Of a DNA stretch of 51,114 nt, positions 1,166-47,996 are shown in pieces; within the stretch, counting starts at the first letter, position 1, and every line of letters begins with the position of its first letter. The stretch spans positions 1-51,114 of the forward strand of contig JAZQUC010000017.1 of assembly GCA_045631075.1 (NCBI GenBank), written 5' to 3'. A program made the translations under genes and the position numbers. The notes under the pieces were generated by a model. The model was not told where the DNA came from and ran no database searches. It saw only the letters and a program-made list of their open reading frames with translations. This stretch comes from Candidatus Fimenecus sp. Lineage in GTDB: Bacteria > Bacillota > Clostridia > Oscillospirales > Acutalibacteraceae.

Positions 1166-1468
1166 CGCGTAGTGGCAGGCTTCCACGCCTGCATTGTCAT
1201 TTGATTACGCAAATTATAATTTATCGGTGAGTTTTTCGTAGGGGCTGGCGTCCCCGACGACCCGTTTTCAATATAATCATTAAAATTATAATTTGTTGGG
1301 ATGATATCAAATTAAAATAGAAACAAAAACCTTGTAGGGGTCATTCACGAATGACCCGTTCCAAAGTGTGATGGTAACCTTATTCGGGCGATTCTTGAAT
1401 CGCCCCTACATTACAATCAAACTAATAATATTGTAGGGGACGATGCTTCATCGTCTCTTTATTTTTTT
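1166..1468. repeat. Cluster of five GTAGGGG-hairpin repeats (GC-rich stem-loops in AT-rich spacer)
   Basis: Copies at 1166-1193, 1236-1264, 1333-1358, 1383-1410 (inverted orientation) and 1433-1457. Each has YGTAG(G/T)GG followed by a 6-9 bp stem whose sequence differs between copies but stays complementary. Confidence 0.75.
1211..1299 (+). repeat. ~90-bp composite direct repeat, copy A (partner at 2448-2538)
   Basis: AAATTATAATTTATCGG ... CGTAGGGG-hairpin ... CCCGTTTTCAATATAATCATT-AAATTATAATTTGTYGG. Roughly 85% identical by eye to 2448-2538 in the same orientation. Confidence 0.8.
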
Positions 1469-1991: not shown

Positions 1992-2408
1992 ATGAATAAA
2001 TATGTAAAGGGGTTTATTCATCGAGGACTCATATTCGGTGGCTTTGGACCCATTATTTTAGGAATTATATATTTTATACTTTCAAAAACTGTTGATGGTT
2101 TTATACTGAGTGGTTTGGAAGTGATGACGGGTATAATTTCAATTTATTTGTTGGCATTTGTTCACGCTGGCGCAAGTATATTTAATCAAATTGAGCATTG
2201 GGGAATATCGAAATCATTGCTTTGTCATTTATCGACACTTTATGTTGCATATTCTCTGTGCTATGTGATAAATACATGGATTCCTTTTGAACCAAAAGTA
2301 CTTTTGTTGTTTACTGCAGTTTTTATGATAATATACTTTGCAGTGTGGTGTACGGTTTACTTTGTTATCAGAATGACAAGTAAAAACTTTAATGCAAAAC
2401 TGAAATGA
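1992..2408 (+). CDS. Small 4-TM membrane protein, DUF3021-like partner of the LytTR protein
   Basis: 138 aa with about four hydrophobic helices. Starts 1 nt after the LytTR stop (TAATATG). LytTR plus small membrane protein is the recurrent LytTR regulatory system arrangement. Confidence 0.6.
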   Translation: MNKYVKGFIHRGLIFGGFGPIILGIIYFILSKTVDGFILSGLEVMTGIISIYLLAFVHAGASIFNQIEHWGISKSLLCHLSTLYVAYSLCYVINTWIPFEPKVLLLFTAVFMIIYFAVWCTVYFVIRMTSKNFNAKLK

Positions 2409-2410
2409 TA

Positions 2411-2443
2411 TGTAAGGGACGATGTTCACATCGTCCTTTTTTA
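2411..2443 (+). terminator. Intrinsic terminator of the LytTR operon (also a GTAGGGG-family hairpin)
   Basis: TGTAAGGGACGATG-TTCA-CATCGTCC followed by TTTTTT. Confidence 0.8.
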
Positions 2444-2447
2444 TATA

Positions 2448-2538
2448 AAATTATAATTTATCGGGGAAAACAATTCGTAGGGGTCGGCGTCCTCGACGAC
2501 CCGTTTTCAATATAATCATTCAAATTATAATTTGTCGG
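2448..2538 (+). repeat. ~90-bp composite direct repeat, copy B (partner at 1211-1299)
   Basis: Same architecture as copy A, including an internal CGTAGGGG hairpin at 2475-2503. Confidence 0.8.
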
Positions 2539-2673
2539 GGAAAAAGCGCCCCTTGTCAAAGGGGAGAGGGCCACGAAGTGGCGAGGGGATTCTTGTTGTT
2601 GTATAATGAATCCCTCCACCGCTAACGCGGTCCCACTCCCTTTAACAAGGGAGGCTTATATCTCCCCGACAAA
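2531..2673. repeat. 143-bp imperfect palindrome made of two inverted copies of a GC-rich two-hairpin element
   Basis: The left arm TTTGTCGGGGA..CCCCTTGTCAAAGGGG..GCCACGAAGTGGC..GAGGGGATTC matches the reverse complement of the right arm GAATCCCTCC..ACCGCTAACGCGGT..CCCTTTAACAAGGGAGG..TCCCCGACAAA. Confidence 0.8.
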
Positions 2674-2746
2674 CTTCAATTTATCGAAATGTTTTTCTTT
2701 CTGACCGAAGGGAAAATCTCGTGAACCAACAAAATAAAACTTAATA

Positions 2747-2775
2747 TTGAATAATTGCAAAATATATGGTAAACT
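2747..2775 (+). promoter_or_regulatory. Candidate orphan promoter (TTGAAT-17-TAAACT)
   Basis: TTGAAT 2747-2752, 17-nt spacer, TAAACT 2770-2775. No credible ORF follows it. Confidence 0.4.
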
Positions 2776-2781
2776 TATAAT

Positions 2782-2995
2782 TGCCAAACCAATTGAATAT
2801 AAAAATGAGGGCGATTTCTATTTTTTTATAGGGATATTTTACTCGTATTTGCATAATCATAATCGTGTTATGAATTTGATAAAAACGCAAATTCTATCAA
2901 TACGATTGTGGTTAATTGCCCTTTATATTGAATTGGTTTGGCGACTATCGGAGTTTGCGTTTTTTGTGCGGCTGCTTCGGTGGTCGCACTTTTTG
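2782..2995 (+). ncRNA. Candidate ~210-nt structured small RNA of unknown family
   Basis: A 20-23 bp closing stem pairs 2781/2784-2803 with 2922-2941/2944, with one G.G mismatch. Inner helices are 2809-2816/2914-2921 and 2856-2865/2903-2912; the latter has three G.U pairs valid only on the + strand. An apical hairpin is GAATTTG..CAAATTC. It ends in a 10-bp UUCG-capped terminator at 2966-2989 plus TTTTT. Confidence 0.4.
2966..2995 (+). terminator. Strong intrinsic terminator with UUCG tetraloop, not preceded by any CDS
   Basis: GTGCGGCTGC-TTCG-GTGGTCGCAC followed by TTTTTG. It sits 190 bp upstream of the next start codon. Confidence 0.7.
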
Positions 2996-3112
2996 TATTT
3001 GTGGAGGGGATTTTTGTGAGATAATTTTATTCATAAAATTACTTGTCAAGATGTTTTATGAAATATTTTTTTGCAATTTTAACAAAAAAATCTGCAATAT
3101 TGCATTTTCTAT

Positions 3113-3140
3113 TGTAATTTATATAAAAATGCAATATACT
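3113..3140 (+). promoter_or_regulatory. Candidate promoter of the LRR surface protein gene (TTGTAA-16-TATACT)
   Basis: TTGTAA 3113-3118 and TATACT 3135-3140. AGGAGG RBS at 3171-3176 lies before ATG 3185. Confidence 0.4.
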
Positions 3141-3184
3141 TATTTTGAGAAAAATAATTTTTAAATATAAAGGAGGAAATTATT

Positions 3185-6100
3185 ATGAAAAAAACAAATA
3201 AAATCTTAGCAATTATCCTCGCAATACTTATGGTTGTATCCATTACACCAATCACAGCAAGTGCTGCTATTACGGGTACTGCCGGTAAAGACATCACATG
3301 GGAGTTGGATAGCTCTACAGGTACACTAACATTTTCAGGTTCAGGTGAAATGTATGGTTACTATGGTGATGGTAGTACTCCACCATGGGACTATGAGTCT
3401 AAAGTTAAAACAGTTATTATAGAAGAAGGAATTACAACTATTGGTTCACGCGCATTTATAGGATTTTATAATCTTACAAATGTGACAATTCCCAATAGTG
3501 TAACAATAATCGACGATAATGCTTTTTATAAATGTACTAAACTTACCAATATAATAATTCCTGAAGGTGTAAGACAAATTGGTGAATATGCATTTTCAAA
3601 CTGTTCTAATCTTACAAGTATAACTTTACCTGAAAGTTTATTGTGGATAGACACAGATGCATTTGCAAAATGTACCGCCCTGACAGATGTTAATTATTTA
3701 GGTACATTAGAAGATTGGTACGGTATTGGTATAGCTGAAGGAAATGGTAATCTTTATGTTGTTGACATTACCTCTCTCCCAAGCAAAAATTTTACATGGG
3801 AGTTCGATGAAGAAACAGCAACATTAACTATTACAGGTAGCGGTGAGATAGTTGATTTTCGTTATGAAGATGATTGGGGCGGTTATTATTGTGGCACTCG
3901 TCCATGGGAAGACATAATAGAAAATGATGTTAAGCATGTGGTTATCAACGAGGGTATAACAAGTATCGGTGCGTATGCCTTTGCTTATTCTAATTCCCTT
4001 GAAACAGTAACTATGAGTAGTGTAAAGACTATCAGTACTGATGCATTTTGTAGTTGTGTTAATCTTAAGGCTGTAACCACAAGTAATAGCTTAAAGGTTA
4101 TTGGAGACGATGCTTTTTATAAATGTGATAAATTAACTTATATTTATTATTCAGGCACACAAAATGAATGGGACCATGTTAAAATAGGAGACCATTGGAA
4201 CGATGAAATGGATACTGTAAAGGTTTATCCAAGTGATTATGTAGTCTATTCTGACTATGGTAATGGTGTTATATTAATTGCAGATGATACAATAACATGG
4301 GTCTTTGATGCCAATTCATATACTTTAACAGTTTCCGGTGAAGGCGATACTTTTGATGATTACATGGTTGACGAAAAGTTTCATTCTAAAACTTGTTATA
4401 AGTTCTTCGGATATAGAGGTTGGGATTATTACAAATACGATACCAAAAAAATTGTTGTAGATAACGGTATAAACTATATTGGTAATAACTCATTTCGTTT
4501 CTTCCTTAATGCTACAGATGTTGTAATTCCTTTAAGTGTAACAGAAATCGGAAAGATGGCATTCAGAACATGCGATTCTATTACTGATGTTTATTATGCA
4601 GGTACAGAAGTACAGTGGAAAAATATTGTAATAGGTACAGATAATGACGCACTTTTAAACGCAAATATTCATTATAACTATGTTGAATGTGAACATAACT
4701 ACGAAACAACAGTGGTAACAGAGCCAACTTGCATAAATCGTGGTTATACAACACACATCTGTTCAAAATGTAATGAAAGCTATGTTGACAGTTTTCTTGA
4801 ATTTACTGAATGTCCTGACTATGTTGAGGTTATATGGCCACCAACATGCACAGAACAAGGATACATAGCACATGAATGTCCTATTTGTCATACGGGATAT
4901 GTTGAAAAATATCTTGACCCGACTCACAAATATGAACAAACTTCTGTAACACAGCCAACTTGTACAACACAAGGCTATACAACATATACATGTACTGCAT
5001 GTGGCAAGGTTGCTAAAGATGACTATACTTCTTCATTAGGTCACGATTATGGTGATGCAATAGAAATATCTGCTCCGACTTGTACTGAAAAAGGCTATAC
5101 AAAACAGATATGTGCAAGATGTGAATATGAATTTATATCCAACAAGGTTCCAGCTTTGGGACACGATTATATTGAAGTGTCAACAATAGCTCCGACATGT
5201 ACTGAACAGGGTTATACAACATATGTGTGTTCAGTATGTGGTGCTGAAAGCATGGATAATTATATTGAAGCAACAGGACATAATTGTGAAGAATGGACAA
5301 CGGTTGTTGAGCCACAATGTGGTGTTAAAGGAAAAGAAAAGGCTGTTTGTACAGTATGTGAAGAAGAAATAGAACAGGATATTTCAAGCCTTAGTCACGA
5401 TTATGGTGAATTAGAGATCGACTATGATGCAACTTGTACAGAAACGGGTCGAATGGCTCAAAAATGTTCAAGATGTGAAAGCAAAACAGGTTTTAAAACA
5501 ATCCCTGCAAAAGGTCATACTTATGGTGAGTGGGTAGTTATAACACCTGCAACATGTCAGACATATGGACTGATGAGACGCCAATGCTTGTATTGCGATA
5601 CCAACGAGAGTGTTTCTGCAATAGGTGAACACGATTACTCAATTGAACATAATGTTGTTGAAGCAACTTGTATTACAGATGGAAGCAAAACAGTTGAATG
5701 TTCATTATGCGGAGATACAAAAAATGAAGTGACACCTGCAACAGGGCACAGTTACACAACAGAAATCACAACTCCTGCAACTCATACACAAACAGGCATT
5801 GAAACATTCACTTGTGCTTGTGGTGATACATACACAGAAGTAATTGAAAAACTTGAAAAACATAATTATGAATCAGTTGTAACAGCACCTACTTGCACAG
5901 AACAAGGTTACACAACATACACCTGCGGATGTGGTAACAGCTATGTTGTTGACTATATAGATGCAACAGGTCATATTTCTGCGGATGCAGTTGAAGAAAA
6001 TTATGTTGCTCCAACTTGTACAGAAACTGGTAGCAAAGATGTGGTTGTTTACTGCTCAATATGTGATGCGGAAATTAGCAGAGAAACAAAAACGATTGAA

Positions 6101-6427
6101 GAAGCTGAACATACAGTTGTTACTTATGAAAAGATAACTCTTGCACCGACTTGTACGGAAAATGGAGCGAAAGAAATTGCACATTGTTGTACTGAATGTA
6201 ACACAGTTATCAGCAAAGAAAATGTAACAATTGATGCAACAGGTCACGCAGACAATGACAATGACGGATACTGCGATGCAGATAACGAGATTCTTGACCC
6301 ATCAGTTGAATGTGAATGTAATTGCCATAAAACAGGCGTTTCAAATTTCTTCTTCAAGCTGATTCTTTTCTTCCAGAAGATTTTTGGCTCAAATAATGTC
6401 TGTGATTGTGGTGTATCACATTACTAA
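3185..6427 (+). CDS. Large secreted protein: signal peptide, BspA-type leucine-rich repeats, 13 Cys/His mini-repeats, Cys-flanked C-terminal motif
   Basis: 1080 aa. The N-terminus MKKTNKILAIILAILMVVSITPITASA is signal-like. Repeated I..AF..C..L..V.IP..V..I motifs are typical of BspA-like LRRs. The C-terminal half is an array of PTCTEQGYTTYTC..CG units. Confidence 0.85.
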   Translation: MKKTNKILAIILAILMVVSITPITASAAITGTAGKDITWELDSSTGTLTFSGSGEMYGYYGDGSTPPWDYESKVKTVIIEEGITTIGSRAFIGFYNLTNVTIPNSVTIIDDNAFYKCTKLTNIIIPEGVRQIGEYAFSNCSNLTSITLPESLLWIDTDAFAKCTALTDVNYLGTLEDWYGIGIAEGNGNLYVVDITSLPSKNFTWEFDEETATLTITGSGEIVDFRYEDDWGGYYCGTRPWEDIIENDVKHVVINEGITSIGAYAFAYSNSLETVTMSSVKTISTDAFCSCVNLKAVTTSNSLKVIGDDAFYKCDKLTYIYYSGTQNEWDHVKIGDHWNDEMDTVKVYPSDYVVYSDYGNGVILIADDTITWVFDANSYTLTVSGEGDTFDDYMVDEKFHSKTCYKFFGYRGWDYYKYDTKKIVVDNGINYIGNNSFRFFLNATDVVIPLSVTEIGKMAFRTCDSITDVYYAGTEVQWKNIVIGTDNDALLNANIHYNYVECEHNYETTVVTEPTCINRGYTTHICSKCNESYVDSFLEFTECPDYVEVIWPPTCTEQGYIAHECPICHTGYVEKYLDPTHKYEQTSVTQPTCTTQGYTTYTCTACGKVAKDDYTSSLGHDYGDAIEISAPTCTEKGYTKQICARCEYEFISNKVPALGHDYIEVSTIAPTCTEQGYTTYVCSVCGAESMDNYIEATGHNCEEWTTVVEPQCGVKGKEKAVCTVCEEEIEQDISSLSHDYGELEIDYDATCTETGRMAQKCSRCESKTGFKTIPAKGHTYGEWVVITPATCQTYGLMRRQCLYCDTNESVSAIGEHDYSIEHNVVEATCITDGSKTVECSLCGDTKNEVTPATGHSYTTEITTPATHTQTGIETFTCACGDTYTEVIEKLEKHNYESVVTAPTCTEQGYTTYTCGCGNSYVVDYIDATGHISADAVEENYVAPTCTETGSKDVVVYCSICDAEISRETKTIEEAEHTVVTYEKITLAPTCTENGAKEIAHCCTECNTVISKENVTIDATGHADNDNDGYCDADNEILDPSVECECNCHKTGVSNFFFKLILFFQKIFGSNNVCDCGVSHY
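4682..6250 (+). repeat. Coding tandem array of 13 units of ~38-42 aa (H-x-Y ... P-T-C-T-E-x-G-Y ... C-x2-C)
   Basis: Units are centred on TCINRGY, TCTEQGY (x3), TCTTQGY, TCTEKGY, QCGVKGK, TCTETGR, TCQTYGL, TCITDGS, THTQTGI, TCTETGS and TCTENGA. The DNA copies differ mainly at synonymous positions. Confidence 0.85.
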
Positions 6428-6448
6428 TTTTAATACGCAAACTTTTTC

Positions 6449-6502
6449 GGCTCCCTCTGACGAGGGAGCTGTCATTTTTGCAAAAAAATGACTGAGGGAG
6501 AG
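6449..6502 (+). repeat. GC-rich two-hairpin element (variant copy) just downstream of the LRR gene stop
   Basis: GGCTCCCTC-TGAC-GAGGGAGC, then GTCATTTTT-GCA-AAAAATGAC, then TGAGGGAGAG. Same architecture as 2531-2673 and 20266-20315. Confidence 0.65.
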
Positions 6503-6551
6503 ATAGATAATAAACAGAACTTATTTATTATCATTAAATTTCTTTTACCCC

Positions 6552-6580
6552 TTGCAAAATCTGTTACATAAGTATAAAAT
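6552..6580 (+). promoter_or_regulatory. Candidate ilvD promoter (TTGCAA-17-TAAAAT)
   Basis: TTGCAA 6552-6557 and TAAAAT 6575-6580. AGGAGG RBS lies before ATG 6624. Confidence 0.5.
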
Positions 6581-6623
6581 ATAGTGTATTATTGTAAATC
6601 TACTTTGTGTAGGAGGACTCATT

Positions 6624-20265: not shown

Positions 20266-20315
20266 GAGCCTCCCTTGTCAAAGGGAGGGGGACCGCGACA
20301 GCGGTGGAGGGATTC
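20266..20315 (+). repeat. GC-rich two-hairpin element (single arm) immediately after the araD stop
   Basis: GCCTCCCTT-GTCA-AAGGGAGG, then ACCGC-GACA-GCGGT, then GGAGGGATTC. Near-identical to the reverse complement of the right arm of 2531-2673. Confidence 0.8.
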
Positions 20316-20356
20316 AAAAAAACGGATATTCCATTCTTGGAATATCCGTTTTTTTA
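20316..20356. terminator. Bidirectional intrinsic terminator between araD and the convergent permease gene
   Basis: AAAAAAA-CGGATATTCCA-TTCT-TGGAATATCCG-TTTTTTT. Confidence 0.85.
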
Positions 20357-21517: not shown

Positions 21518-21609
21518 TGGCGGAGATGAAGAGATTTGAACTCTTGCGCCGCTATTCACGACCTACCGCATTTCGAGTGCGGACCCTTCAACCACTTGGG
21601 TACATCTCC
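21518..21609 (-). tRNA. tRNA-Ser (anticodon CGA) with encoded CCA
   Basis: The reverse complement folds as a cloverleaf: acceptor GGAGATG/CATCTCC, anticodon arm CCGCA-CTCGAAA-TGCGG, long variable arm, T arm AAGAG-TTCAAAT-CTCTT, and 3' GCCA. Confidence 0.9.
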
Positions 21610-43441: not shown

Positions 43442-43770
43442 ATGAGTAAATTGGGCAGTTGCGTAAGTGTTTACTTGTGAGGAAAGTCCGAGCATCATAC
43501 AGCAGGGTAACGGCTAACAGCCGCCGAGGGTGACCTTAGGGAAAGTGCATAGAGAATAACCGCCGTTTTTACGGTAAGGGTGGAAAGGCGAGGTAAGAGC
43601 TCACCAGCGTTGCAGAGATGTAACGGCTGAGCAAACCCTACCCGATGCAACATCGACTGGAGTTGTCAGCTGGGCAGATACTCCGAAAGATGGCTTCAGG
43701 TATGTGGCAACACATATCGCAGATAGATAATTGCCTTAAACGACAGAACTCGGCTTACAGATTTACTCAT
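43442..43770 (+). ncRNA. rnpB: RNase P RNA (bacterial; class-A-like features)
   Basis: The P4 strands GAGGAAAGTCCG (43479-43490) and ACAGAACTCGGCTTAC are present. GGTAAGGGTGGAAAGGCGAGGTAAGAGCTCACC resembles the class A P10-P12 region. P1 is formed by TGAGTAAAT / ATTTACTCA. Confidence 0.9.
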
Positions 43771-43775
43771 TTTTA

Positions 43776-47825: not shown

Positions 47826-47861
47826 TTTGTCAGGTGTATAATGTAATCAAGCCAAGTAAAT

Positions 47862-47955
47862 ATAGTTATGGGTGCTGACGGGTAAGTCGGCTGAGATTGA
47901 GGGTAATCCACCTCTGACCATTGAACCTGATACGGATAATGCCGGCGTAGGAAAT
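47862..47955 (+). promoter_or_regulatory. TPP (THI-box) riboswitch aptamer
   Basis: GGGTGCTG...GGCTGAGA...ACC..TGAACCTGATACGGATAATGCCGGCGTAGGAA matches the THI-element consensus. It lies upstream of a thiamine transporter gene. Confidence 0.9.
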
Positions 47956-47957
47956 TT

Positions 47958-47996
47958 TCATTCAGCCTTGCGGTATTCCTTGGCTGAATTTTTTAT
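47958..47996 (+). terminator. Expression-platform terminator of the TPP riboswitch
   Basis: ATTCAGCC ... GGCTGAAT stem followed by TTTTTT, just upstream of the thiT RBS (GGAGG). Confidence 0.8.

Follow-up and report, generated by a model that had tools for sequence, protein, structure and literature searches.

We analysed a stretch of 51,114 nucleotides (nt) from Candidatus Fimenecus sp. (contig JAZQUC010000017.1, positions 1 to 51,114), referred to here as the window. Between a DUF3021 gene ending at 2408 and a gene for a leucine-rich-repeat (LRR) protein starting at 3185 lies a 775-bp gap without annotated genes, and a sequence-only reading had proposed that positions 2747–2995 of this gap are an orphan promoter-to-terminator unit encoding a structured RNA of about 210 nt. 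We regard it as practically certain that 2747–2995 is a real, conserved, structured RNA encoded on the + strand. The promoter, the helices P1 and P2, the apical hairpin and the UUCG-capped terminator all lie where that reading had placed them, and the full layout of the element is as follows.

2747–2775, + strand: sigma-A-type promoter, read from the sequence (−35 TTGAAT at 2747–2752, 17-nt spacer, −10 TAAACT at 2770–2775)
2767–2768, + strand: extended −10 TG of this promoter
~2782–2783, + strand: predicted transcription start of the RNA element
2783–2803, + strand: 5' strand of P1, partner 2922–2942, with 20 of 21 positions paired
2809–2816, + strand: 5' strand of P2 (GGGCGAUU), partner 2914–2921 (AAUUGCCC)
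2817–2853, + strand: U-rich variable bulge, on the 5' strand only, with one or two small hairpins (P2a) and poor sequence conservation in both alignments described below (A1 and A4)
2856–2866, + strand: 5' strand of P3, partner 2902–2912, with a core of 2856–2865/2903–2912
2872–2894, + strand: P4 apical hairpin (GAAUUUG, loop AUAAAAACG, CAAAUUC), in which 2872–2878 pairs with 2888–2894
2902–2942, + strand: 3' strands of P3, P2 and P1, a nearly unbroken strand of the rod
2943–2964, + strand: linker and tail GACUAUCGGAGUUUGCGUUUUU, invariant columns in A1 and the proposed switching sequence
2966–2994, + strand: intrinsic terminator (10-bp stem 2966–2975/2980–2989, UUCG loop, U-tract T5 at 2990–2994)

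Helices P1 to P4 form a rod-like hairpin of ~160 nt within an RNA of ~210–215 nt. All sizeable bulges of the rod are on its 5' strand; the 3' strand has only 0–4 unpaired nt. The sole mismatch in P1 is G2795 opposite G2930. We note that this mid-P1 position (2795/2930) is kept as a non-Watson-Crick position throughout the family, as G.G in the window type and as U.G or A.C elsewhere. P3 of the window copy carries a small ATAATC duplication, and its inner helix (2856–2865/2903–2912) pairs as the earlier reading described, with two U.G pairs by our count rather than three. That reading had also argued that the pairing is strand-specific, and this holds: the + strand folds at −80.6 kcal/mol (z = −8.8, equalled by none of 200 shuffles), whereas the − strand reaches only −50.4 kcal/mol (z = −5.8). 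Scored with a covariance model of 90 complete homologues, the window copy reaches 227.6 bits on the + strand and 29.3 bits on the − strand, and a scan with this model found no second copy of the element in the 51-kb window. The mechanically called 90-aa open reading frame (ORF) at 2747–3019 has no Pfam match, and the same is true of both mechanical ORFs that overlap the region. On reading 2922–2995 we saw no internal promoter able to drive adjacent ORFs.

We collected homologues by two independent routes. When one genome per species was scanned for the P1 arm 21-mer GCCAAACCAATTSAATATAAA, at least 100 stretches were recovered, of which all but two or three are real. The matches listed come from ~92 different metagenome-assembled genome (MAG) assemblies, mostly from the guts of ruminants and other animals, and the carriers among them include Acutalibacteraceae, Oscillospiraceae, Ruminococcus, Ca. 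Fimenecus, Faecousia and related 'Clostridia'. A second search used a pattern of the apical loop and linker that is independent of P1; run on metagenomes, it added 89 further contigs, some of them labelled human gut. In total, the family has at least ~180 homologues, from ~90 species-level MAGs and gut metagenomes. There are one or two copies per genome in the ~92 assemblies, with two copies in five of them, and in such genomes the copies precede different genes. Tandem copies occur on two contigs (L030 and L144), where each copy again precedes a gene.

Mobile replicons gave almost nothing. Viral contigs scanned with the apical loop and linker pattern yielded no matches, and a BLAST search of PLSDB plasmids found no match to the element. 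INPHARED returned a single 47-nt match with 85% identity (MT835503.1, 485–531), which aligns to query positions 178–224, that is, to the tail and terminator. MT835503.1 is an unannotated contig of an uncultured human-faecal phage, and its match is probably a chance resemblance to a similar terminator.

Covariation across the family supports the fold. We made two alignments: A1, selected with the 21-mer, and A4, drawn from metagenomes and not selected on P1. Because A1 was selected on the 21-mer, the conservation of P1 in it reflects ascertainment; in the same alignment, P3 and the terminator stem covary. In A4, 95.6% of cells are paired, double changes occur at 31 of 55 pairs (683 cells), and the covariation score is 0.485, where shuffles give 0.170 and slid controls no more than 0.071. 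The base of P1 (GCCAAAC/GUUUGGC) is invariant, and its distal half alternates among C-G, U-A and A-U, so that helix 1 of the alignment shows double changes at 6 of 12 pairs (CG/UA/AU at A4 columns 20, 23 and 24, for example). Every pair of P2 (helices 6–7) has double changes. No helix varies or covaries more than P3, which has double changes at 8 of 8 pairs in helices 9–10 and both sides changed in up to 47 of 75 sequences. The terminator stem covaries as well; column 340/354, for instance, is GC in 28 sequences, UG in 22, CG in 9, AU in 6 and UA in 6. P4 (helix 11) is nearly invariant, being 100% paired with no double changes. Beyond the parts imposed by the search, A1 is nearly invariant in the P4 hairpin, including its A-rich loop, in the linker and tail GGCGACUAUCGGAGUUUGCGUUUUUUGUGCG and in the terminator-loop CUUCGG.

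The promoter belongs to the conserved unit. Among 172 homologues, TAnnnT is found in register in 143 and an extended TG in 97, and 102 have a −35 element at a spacing of 16–18 nt, 97 of these at exactly 17 nt. No reading frame is conserved. Spacer lengths modulo 3 are uniform (62/60/52 and 63/63/48), and all three frames contain stops in 144 of 174 homologues. These frame statistics and stops, together with the lack of a Pfam match, led us to reject a protein-coding or type I toxin gene, and they bear out the earlier statement that the unit holds no credible ORF.

The sequence-only reading had recognised neither 6S, signal recognition particle RNA, tmRNA nor any known riboswitch, and database searches agree. 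With Rfam 15 at gathering thresholds, the whole window matches only RNase P, TPP and tRNA models, all outside the element (RNase P class A at 43443–43773, a TPP riboswitch at 47858–47970 and a tRNA at 21521–21609). In a permissive scan (E ≤ 10) of 2380–3220, the best overlapping matches were MicF at 18.5 bits (gathering threshold 79) and MIR8007 at 14.5 bits, and ten diverse homologues showed no Rfam match over the element. Literature searches with characteristic sequence strings returned unrelated primer matches only, and the strings are absent from the first 200 of the 408 supplementary files of the human-microbiome structured-RNA survey. The family may be among the unnamed candidates of large metagenomic surveys. 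We class the RNA as a new family within a known kind, the attenuation leaders, with no earlier description found in the searchable literature.

The genes downstream are informative about function. We evaluated 162 loci for a Shine-Dalgarno sequence (SD) and ORF, and 152 downstream and 143 upstream neighbours for orientation. In 107 of the 162 loci, the terminator is followed within 60 nt by an SD and the start of an ORF of at least 60 aa. Elsewhere we found an SD with a mini-ORF of 1–5 codons (12 loci, including the window), a short ORF (14) or nothing (23). The distance from T-run to start codon is mostly 15–23 nt, with a mode of 17–21 nt. A terminator-to-start gap of 15–25 nt leaves no space for another promoter, and these near ORFs must therefore depend on read-through. 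The nearest ORF of at least 90 aa is co-oriented with the RNA in 131 of 152 loci (86%) downstream and in 95 of 143 upstream.

The downstream proteins are mutually unrelated. Pfam assigned LRR_5 (BspA type) to 18 of 90, Acyltransferase to 8, Peptidase_S8 to 7 and AMP-binding to 4, with Flg_new, GLUG, Lectin_C (C-type lectin), dockerin and CHAP among the further families. By a crude predictor, 56% of downstream proteins have a signal-peptide-like or transmembrane-like N-terminus, compared with 18% of background ORFs from the same loci (p = 2e-22), and lipoproteins are also among the exported-looking products. Flanking ORF clusters are small except for the downstream LRR, AMP-ligase and acyltransferase families. 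We found no linked regulator or conserved neighbour, and the flanks are non-syntenic family-wide. In one subgroup, a co-oriented tRNA-Arg(CCU) gene lies 270–380 nt upstream of the RNA with repeats between them, at these positions.

L005, 5320–5394: tRNA-Arg(CCU) gene
L012, 7225–7301: tRNA-Arg(CCU) gene
L013, 2347–2423: tRNA-Arg(CCU) gene
L094, 1190–1266: tRNA-Arg(CCU) gene

Within the genus of the window, one site shows gene exchange directly. The order there is DUF3021, RNA, gene X and ilvD, and the identity of gene X varies by genome: the window has a gene for a BspA-LRR protein there, L004 one for an AMP-binding enzyme, L057 one for a 707-aa exported protein and L032 one for an acyltransferase. 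The genes that flank the RNA in the window (mnmA, LytTR, DUF3021 and ilvD) show a close relationship to Ca. Fimenecus MAGs, with 80–87% nucleotide identity. Exact matches to three window proteins (DUF3021, LytTR and IlvD) were absent from the protein collection searched, which therefore does not include the source genome. Judged by comparison of window positions 2783–6600 with L004, L032 and L057, the DUF3021–ilvD interval behind the RNA is an apparent local hot spot of gene replacement.

In the window itself, four features follow the terminator.

3003–3009, + strand: Shine-Dalgarno sequence GGAGGGG, where most homologues have the SD of a long ORF
3016–3024, + strand: mini-ORF GTG AGA TAA (2 codons), where most homologues start a long ORF
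3112–3140, + strand: the LRR gene's own promoter, TTGTAA-17-TATACT, not part of the RNA
3185–6427, + strand: BspA-type leucine-rich-repeat protein with a signal peptide, the commonest downstream class in the RNA family

A 160-nt AT-rich spacer separates the mini-ORF from the LRR gene and holds the second promoter. Six related loci share this layout; in all seven, conservation covers the mini-ORF's SD and ATG as well as the second promoter but not the remaining spacer, and the ORF at the mini-ORF position has only 2–3 codons. Because it is conserved in the seven loci, we accept the proposal of the sequence-only reading that the LRR gene has its own promoter, and extend it to this clade. The window copy is thus a derived arrangement of leader, vestigial SD and mini-ORF, second promoter and LRR gene, in which the mini-ORF with its SD may be what is left of the leader's original reading frame, or may function as a site for ribosome loading or stabilisation.

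Other features of the gap and its surroundings are recorded here as separate observations. Directly upstream of the LRR promoter (window 3090–3140), a perfect palindrome, TGCAATATTGCA (3093–3104), is accompanied by more copies of TGCAAT, and from its sequence this region looks like a candidate transcription-factor operator. A two-gene module directly upstream of the gap (1559–2408) encodes a LytTR DNA-binding protein of 143 aa and a DUF3021 membrane protein of 138 aa; in the closest relatives (L004, L032 and L057) the two genes and the RNA are syntenic, which does not hold family-wide. The upstream half of the gap (2447–2690) consists of GC-rich repeats that resemble miniature inverted-repeat transposable elements (MITEs) and are unrelated to the RNA, with terminal inverted repeats AAATTATAATTTRTCGGGGA and TCCCCGACAAA. 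Parts of these repeats recur in the window (1235–1296 and 20267–20316) at 92–94% identity, and similar GC-rich repeats adjoin the RNA in L013 (2470–2620) and interrupt a degenerate copy in L088.

Two alternative pairings are open to the invariant linker and tail. In the antiterminator (AT) helix, GACUAUCGGAGU (2943–2954) pairs with GCUUCGGUGGUC (2974–2985), which comprises the loop and 3' half of the terminator, and this pairing is kept in 90.9–94.4% of alignment cells. AT leaves GCAC unpaired before the U-tract, and therefore should not terminate. In the loop-tail (LT) helix, the tail GGAGUUUGCGUUUUU (2950–2964) pairs with the complementary P4 loop and 3' strand AAAAACGCAAAUUCU (2881–2895), a pairing kept in 99.4–99.5% of alignment cells. 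Both helices need GGAGU, and each has a further rival: P4 for LT, the terminator for AT.

These competing structures are close in energy. Over 87 distinct 3' domains, the median difference between AT and the terminator is −1.0 kcal/mol; with the linker shuffled it is +6.3 kcal/mol, and the real median is reached by only 1.4% of linker shuffles. For the 3' domain of the window copy, the minimum free energy structure is AT (−20.8 versus −15.9 kcal/mol for the terminator), and the minimum free energy structure of the full-length RNA likewise shows AT. The LT duplex is computed at −16.9 kcal/mol versus −3.2 kcal/mol for P4. When 2950–2964 is blocked, as LT would block it, the computed fold of the 3' domain switches from AT (−20.8) to the terminator (−15.9). 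Compensated substitutions are few: two in LT (in L033, G>A is balanced by C>U; in L052, U>C by A>G, along with a change of the P4 partner), matched by 4 of 500 shuffles, and one in AT (L043, A>G with U>C), matched by 6 of 500 shuffles. Covariation in AT and LT is sparse because both segments hardly vary.

Taken as a whole, the RNA combines its own promoter, a structured 5' domain, an intrinsic terminator and a co-oriented gene downstream with an alternative structure that sequesters one terminator half and excludes the other fold. We compared several accounts of its function, and the one we judge the most probable, somewhat better than an even bet on the sequence evidence, is that it acts as a cis-acting 5' leader in gut Oscillospirales, working by conditional transcription termination. 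Such a leader probably sets how much transcription reads through into the downstream genes.

We propose the following sequence of events. The strong sigma-A promoter would start the transcript at ~2783, and the first ~160 nt would fold into the P1-P2-P3-P4 rod with the 5' end buried. In the OFF state, the tail would be captured by the P4 loop and 3' strand (LT), the weak P4 would open, and the terminator at 2966–2994 would be left free, so that a stable RNA of ~210 nt is released. In the ON state, P4 and its loop would be kept closed or be occupied by an effector, which could be a protein, a small ligand, another RNA or temperature; the linker would then take the terminator loop and 3' half (AT), and polymerase would continue into the adjacent SD. 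Family-wide, the genes headed by the SD behind the leader are interchangeable and encode mainly secreted or surface proteins. In the window this SD heads a 2-codon remnant, and read-through would add to BspA-LRR transcription besides that from the gene's own promoter. The analysis establishes the family, its fold and strand, its promoter, terminator and gene context, and that the alternative pairings exist at nearly equal energy; we infer their use as a switch, the direction of that switch and the effector. Geometrically, LT could form if the rod folded back at the large 5'-strand bulge, with the 7-nt linker spanning ~4.5 nm. Given an invariant hairpin and linker next to variable junctions, a protein or RNA partner fits better than a metabolite pocket. 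For a metabolite riboswitch in particular the signs are mixed: the helices covary, but the junctions show little conservation, P4, the P1 base and the linker contain the invariant nucleotides, and the genes behind the RNA are of heterogeneous function. CsrA, Hfq, a cold-shock protein and STAB-SD-like binding of 30S subunits to AUCGGAG are conceivable effectors.

A more far-reaching version of this proposal, which we offer tentatively, treats the RNA as the sensor of a new system in which an effector reads the apical hairpin and so gates an exchangeable 'expression slot', through which Oscillospirales in human and animal guts would swap and control their dominant secreted and surface proteins. 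Conceivable effectors are proteins, second messengers and, where another copy of the element is present, its terminated RNA. Equally speculatively, the cargo of the slot could be BspA-LRR adhesins, S8 proteases, lipoproteins and envelope-lipid enzymes, with the promoter-leader-SD unit serving as the anchor for recombination.

Several observations weigh against a conditional-termination leader. The covariation in AT and LT amounts to three substitution events, LT is a long-range pseudoknot whose steric fit is judged from helix lengths, and no conserved multi-helix pocket of the kind found in metabolite riboswitches is visible. In about 30% of loci, no long ORF comes directly after the terminator. 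The LRR gene of the window has a conserved promoter of its own while the RNA is fully intact, which also fits a role in trans, and the 3' module of U6, hairpin and U5, with a conserved single-stranded stretch upstream, resembles that of classical small RNAs (sRNAs).

These last points also suit the sequence-only reading, which preferred a stand-alone sRNA to a leader. In its full form, this account posits an abundant trans-acting RNA of ~210 nt with GACUAUCGGAGUUUGCG as seed or protein site, a chaperone-binding U6-hairpin-U-tail, and only incidental read-through. Its own conserved promoter and strong terminator, the usual one or two copies per genome, the extreme sequence conservation of linker and apical loop without any need for covariation, and the persistence of an intact RNA in the window and six relatives despite a 2–3-codon ORF and an LRR promoter all suit it, as does the classical U-rich, hairpin and U-tail 3' end; the Hfq-type features of 2943–2994 (U-rich stretch, terminator hairpin, U-tail and conserved single-stranded stretch) occupy nucleotides for which AT and LT also account. 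Yet two thirds of loci have an SD and long ORF 15–26 nt past the T-run that could be expressed by read-through alone, 86% of downstream genes share the orientation of the RNA, the complementarity of the linker to the terminator loop and 3' half would be superfluous for a pure sRNA, and there is no nameable target. We consider an exclusively trans-acting sRNA unlikely. The part of the earlier proposal that stands is a genuine + strand RNA with its own promoter and terminator; the preference for an sRNA over a leader is not supported, given the SD and long ORF within 60 nt in 107 of 162 loci and the antiterminator alternative encoded by the linker. Because the window has a vestigial SD and mini-ORF and an LRR gene with its own conserved promoter, the description 'stand-alone sRNA' is only partly right even there. 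A dual role, as a leader that also releases a trans-acting sRNA, is possible.

The remaining alternatives explain less. The RNA could be part of a constitutive, non-sensing expression cassette, with a strong promoter, a 5' stem that protects against exonucleolytic decay, a leaky terminator and a strong SD, behind which genes for exported proteins have recombined, by analogy with the leaders of S-layer genes and with single expression sites of variable surface proteins. P1 does bury the 5' end, the SD and ATG are conserved in the unit even where only 2–3 codons follow, and the DUF3021-RNA-X-ilvD slot holds different genes in one genus while the flanks are otherwise non-syntenic. Such a cassette would leave unexplained the invariance of the apical loop and linker and the two exclusive, energetically balanced linker pairings, and for simple 5' stabilisation neither 160 nt nor a terminator would be required; we hold the cassette to be quite improbable. 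A DNA palindrome or MITE, with 2783–2803 and 2922–2942 as terminal inverted repeats, was named by the sequence-only reading as one possible refutation of its proposal. The long near-perfect inverted repeat does fold well on the − strand too (z = −5.8), true MITE-like repeats lie close upstream at 2447–2690, and some MAG contigs end inside the element. This idea is effectively refuted by the single copy in 51 kb and one or two per genome in ~92 assemblies, by a conserved unit that reaches asymmetrically to promoter and terminator, by abundant strand-specific compensatory changes, G.U pairs and model scores (227.6 vs 29.3 bits), and by the lack of phage or plasmid copies in viral contigs, PLSDB and INPHARED. 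The homologue search and covariation test that the same reading had called for thus came out in favour of an RNA, with at least ~180 homologues and double changes at 31 pairs. A divergent 6S-like RNA acting as an RNA polymerase decoy, or another housekeeping RNA missed by Rfam, would share the rod shape, the length of ~200 nt, the strong promoter and the usual single copy per genome. There is, however, no match to RF00013 or any other family at E ≤ 10 for the window or ten diverse homologues, a fixed SD and ORF downstream would not be expected of 6S, and a two-sided central bubble is absent because the bulges are on the 5' strand only. We regard this last account as exceedingly improbable.

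The Oscillospirales (Acutalibacteraceae, Ruminococcaceae and Oscillospiraceae) are abundant and mostly uncultured gut bacteria in which almost no RNA regulators are known, and the family heads genes for proteins displayed to host, phage and substrate. If the terminator is indeed conditional, it would offer a direct handle on the control of surface-protein expression and define an orphan sensor. A conserved leader with an exchangeable gene behind it, at a single syntenic site, further suggests a mechanism by which surface proteins turn over. With the family added to annotation resources, 775-bp 'gene-free gaps' such as this one would no longer seem empty.

Among known systems, the S-box/SAM-I and T-box leaders of Firmicutes, with terminator, antiterminator and anti-antiterminator, are similar in organisation: each is a 5' untranslated region with a sigma-A promoter, a structured sensor domain and an intrinsic terminator followed by the SD of the regulated gene, and in each the 3' half of the terminator pairs with an upstream segment that the sensor domain can itself sequester. 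In contrast to them, the RNA described here has no sequence or covariance-model similarity to any Rfam family, and its sensor is a single rod of ~160 nt, invariant only at the base and apical hairpin, instead of a multi-helix ligand pocket or a tRNA-binding Stem I and T-box bulge. Its downstream genes do not belong to one metabolic pathway, and there are usually only one or two copies per genome. Protein-dependent attenuators (PyrR/pyr, TRAP/trp, LicT-SacY/RAT and ANTAR) resemble it in that a short conserved hairpin or single-stranded element decides between terminator and antiterminator, and the P4 loop and linker are conserved by sequence and not by covariation, as expected of a protein site; unlike those systems, it has no cognate regulator gene linked to it. 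Read against the published motifs, the RNA contains no RAT 29-mer, PyrR ARUCCAGAGAGGYU loop, (G/U)AG repeats or pair of hexaloop hairpins.

The kind of genes downstream recalls the cyclic di-GMP riboswitches. In C. difficile, these control adhesins, proteases, pili and surface proteins by transcription termination. The RNA shares this kind of gene with the GEMM-I and GEMM-II riboswitches of Clostridia, but it matches neither RF01051 nor RF01786, has another architecture and is present in much lower copy number. Like Listeria SreA/SreB and Enterococcus EutX, which are sRNAs derived from riboswitches or attenuators, the terminated leader would be a discrete, probably abundant RNA that could also act in trans, and its U-rich stretch, GC hairpin and U-tail recall the Hfq-binding 3' module of enteric sRNAs. 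The exchange of genes behind it is most reminiscent of the Lactobacillus slpA leader with its slpA/slpB swap and of Campylobacter fetus sapA, where a fixed promoter and structured 5' region, whose 5' hairpin is expected to stabilise the mRNA, precede an exchanged surface-protein gene. At those sites the conserved region includes coding sequence and the swap occurs by inversion between homologous cassettes in one genome, whereas here conservation stops at the SD and ATG, the exchange is observed between species, and the unit includes an intrinsic terminator.

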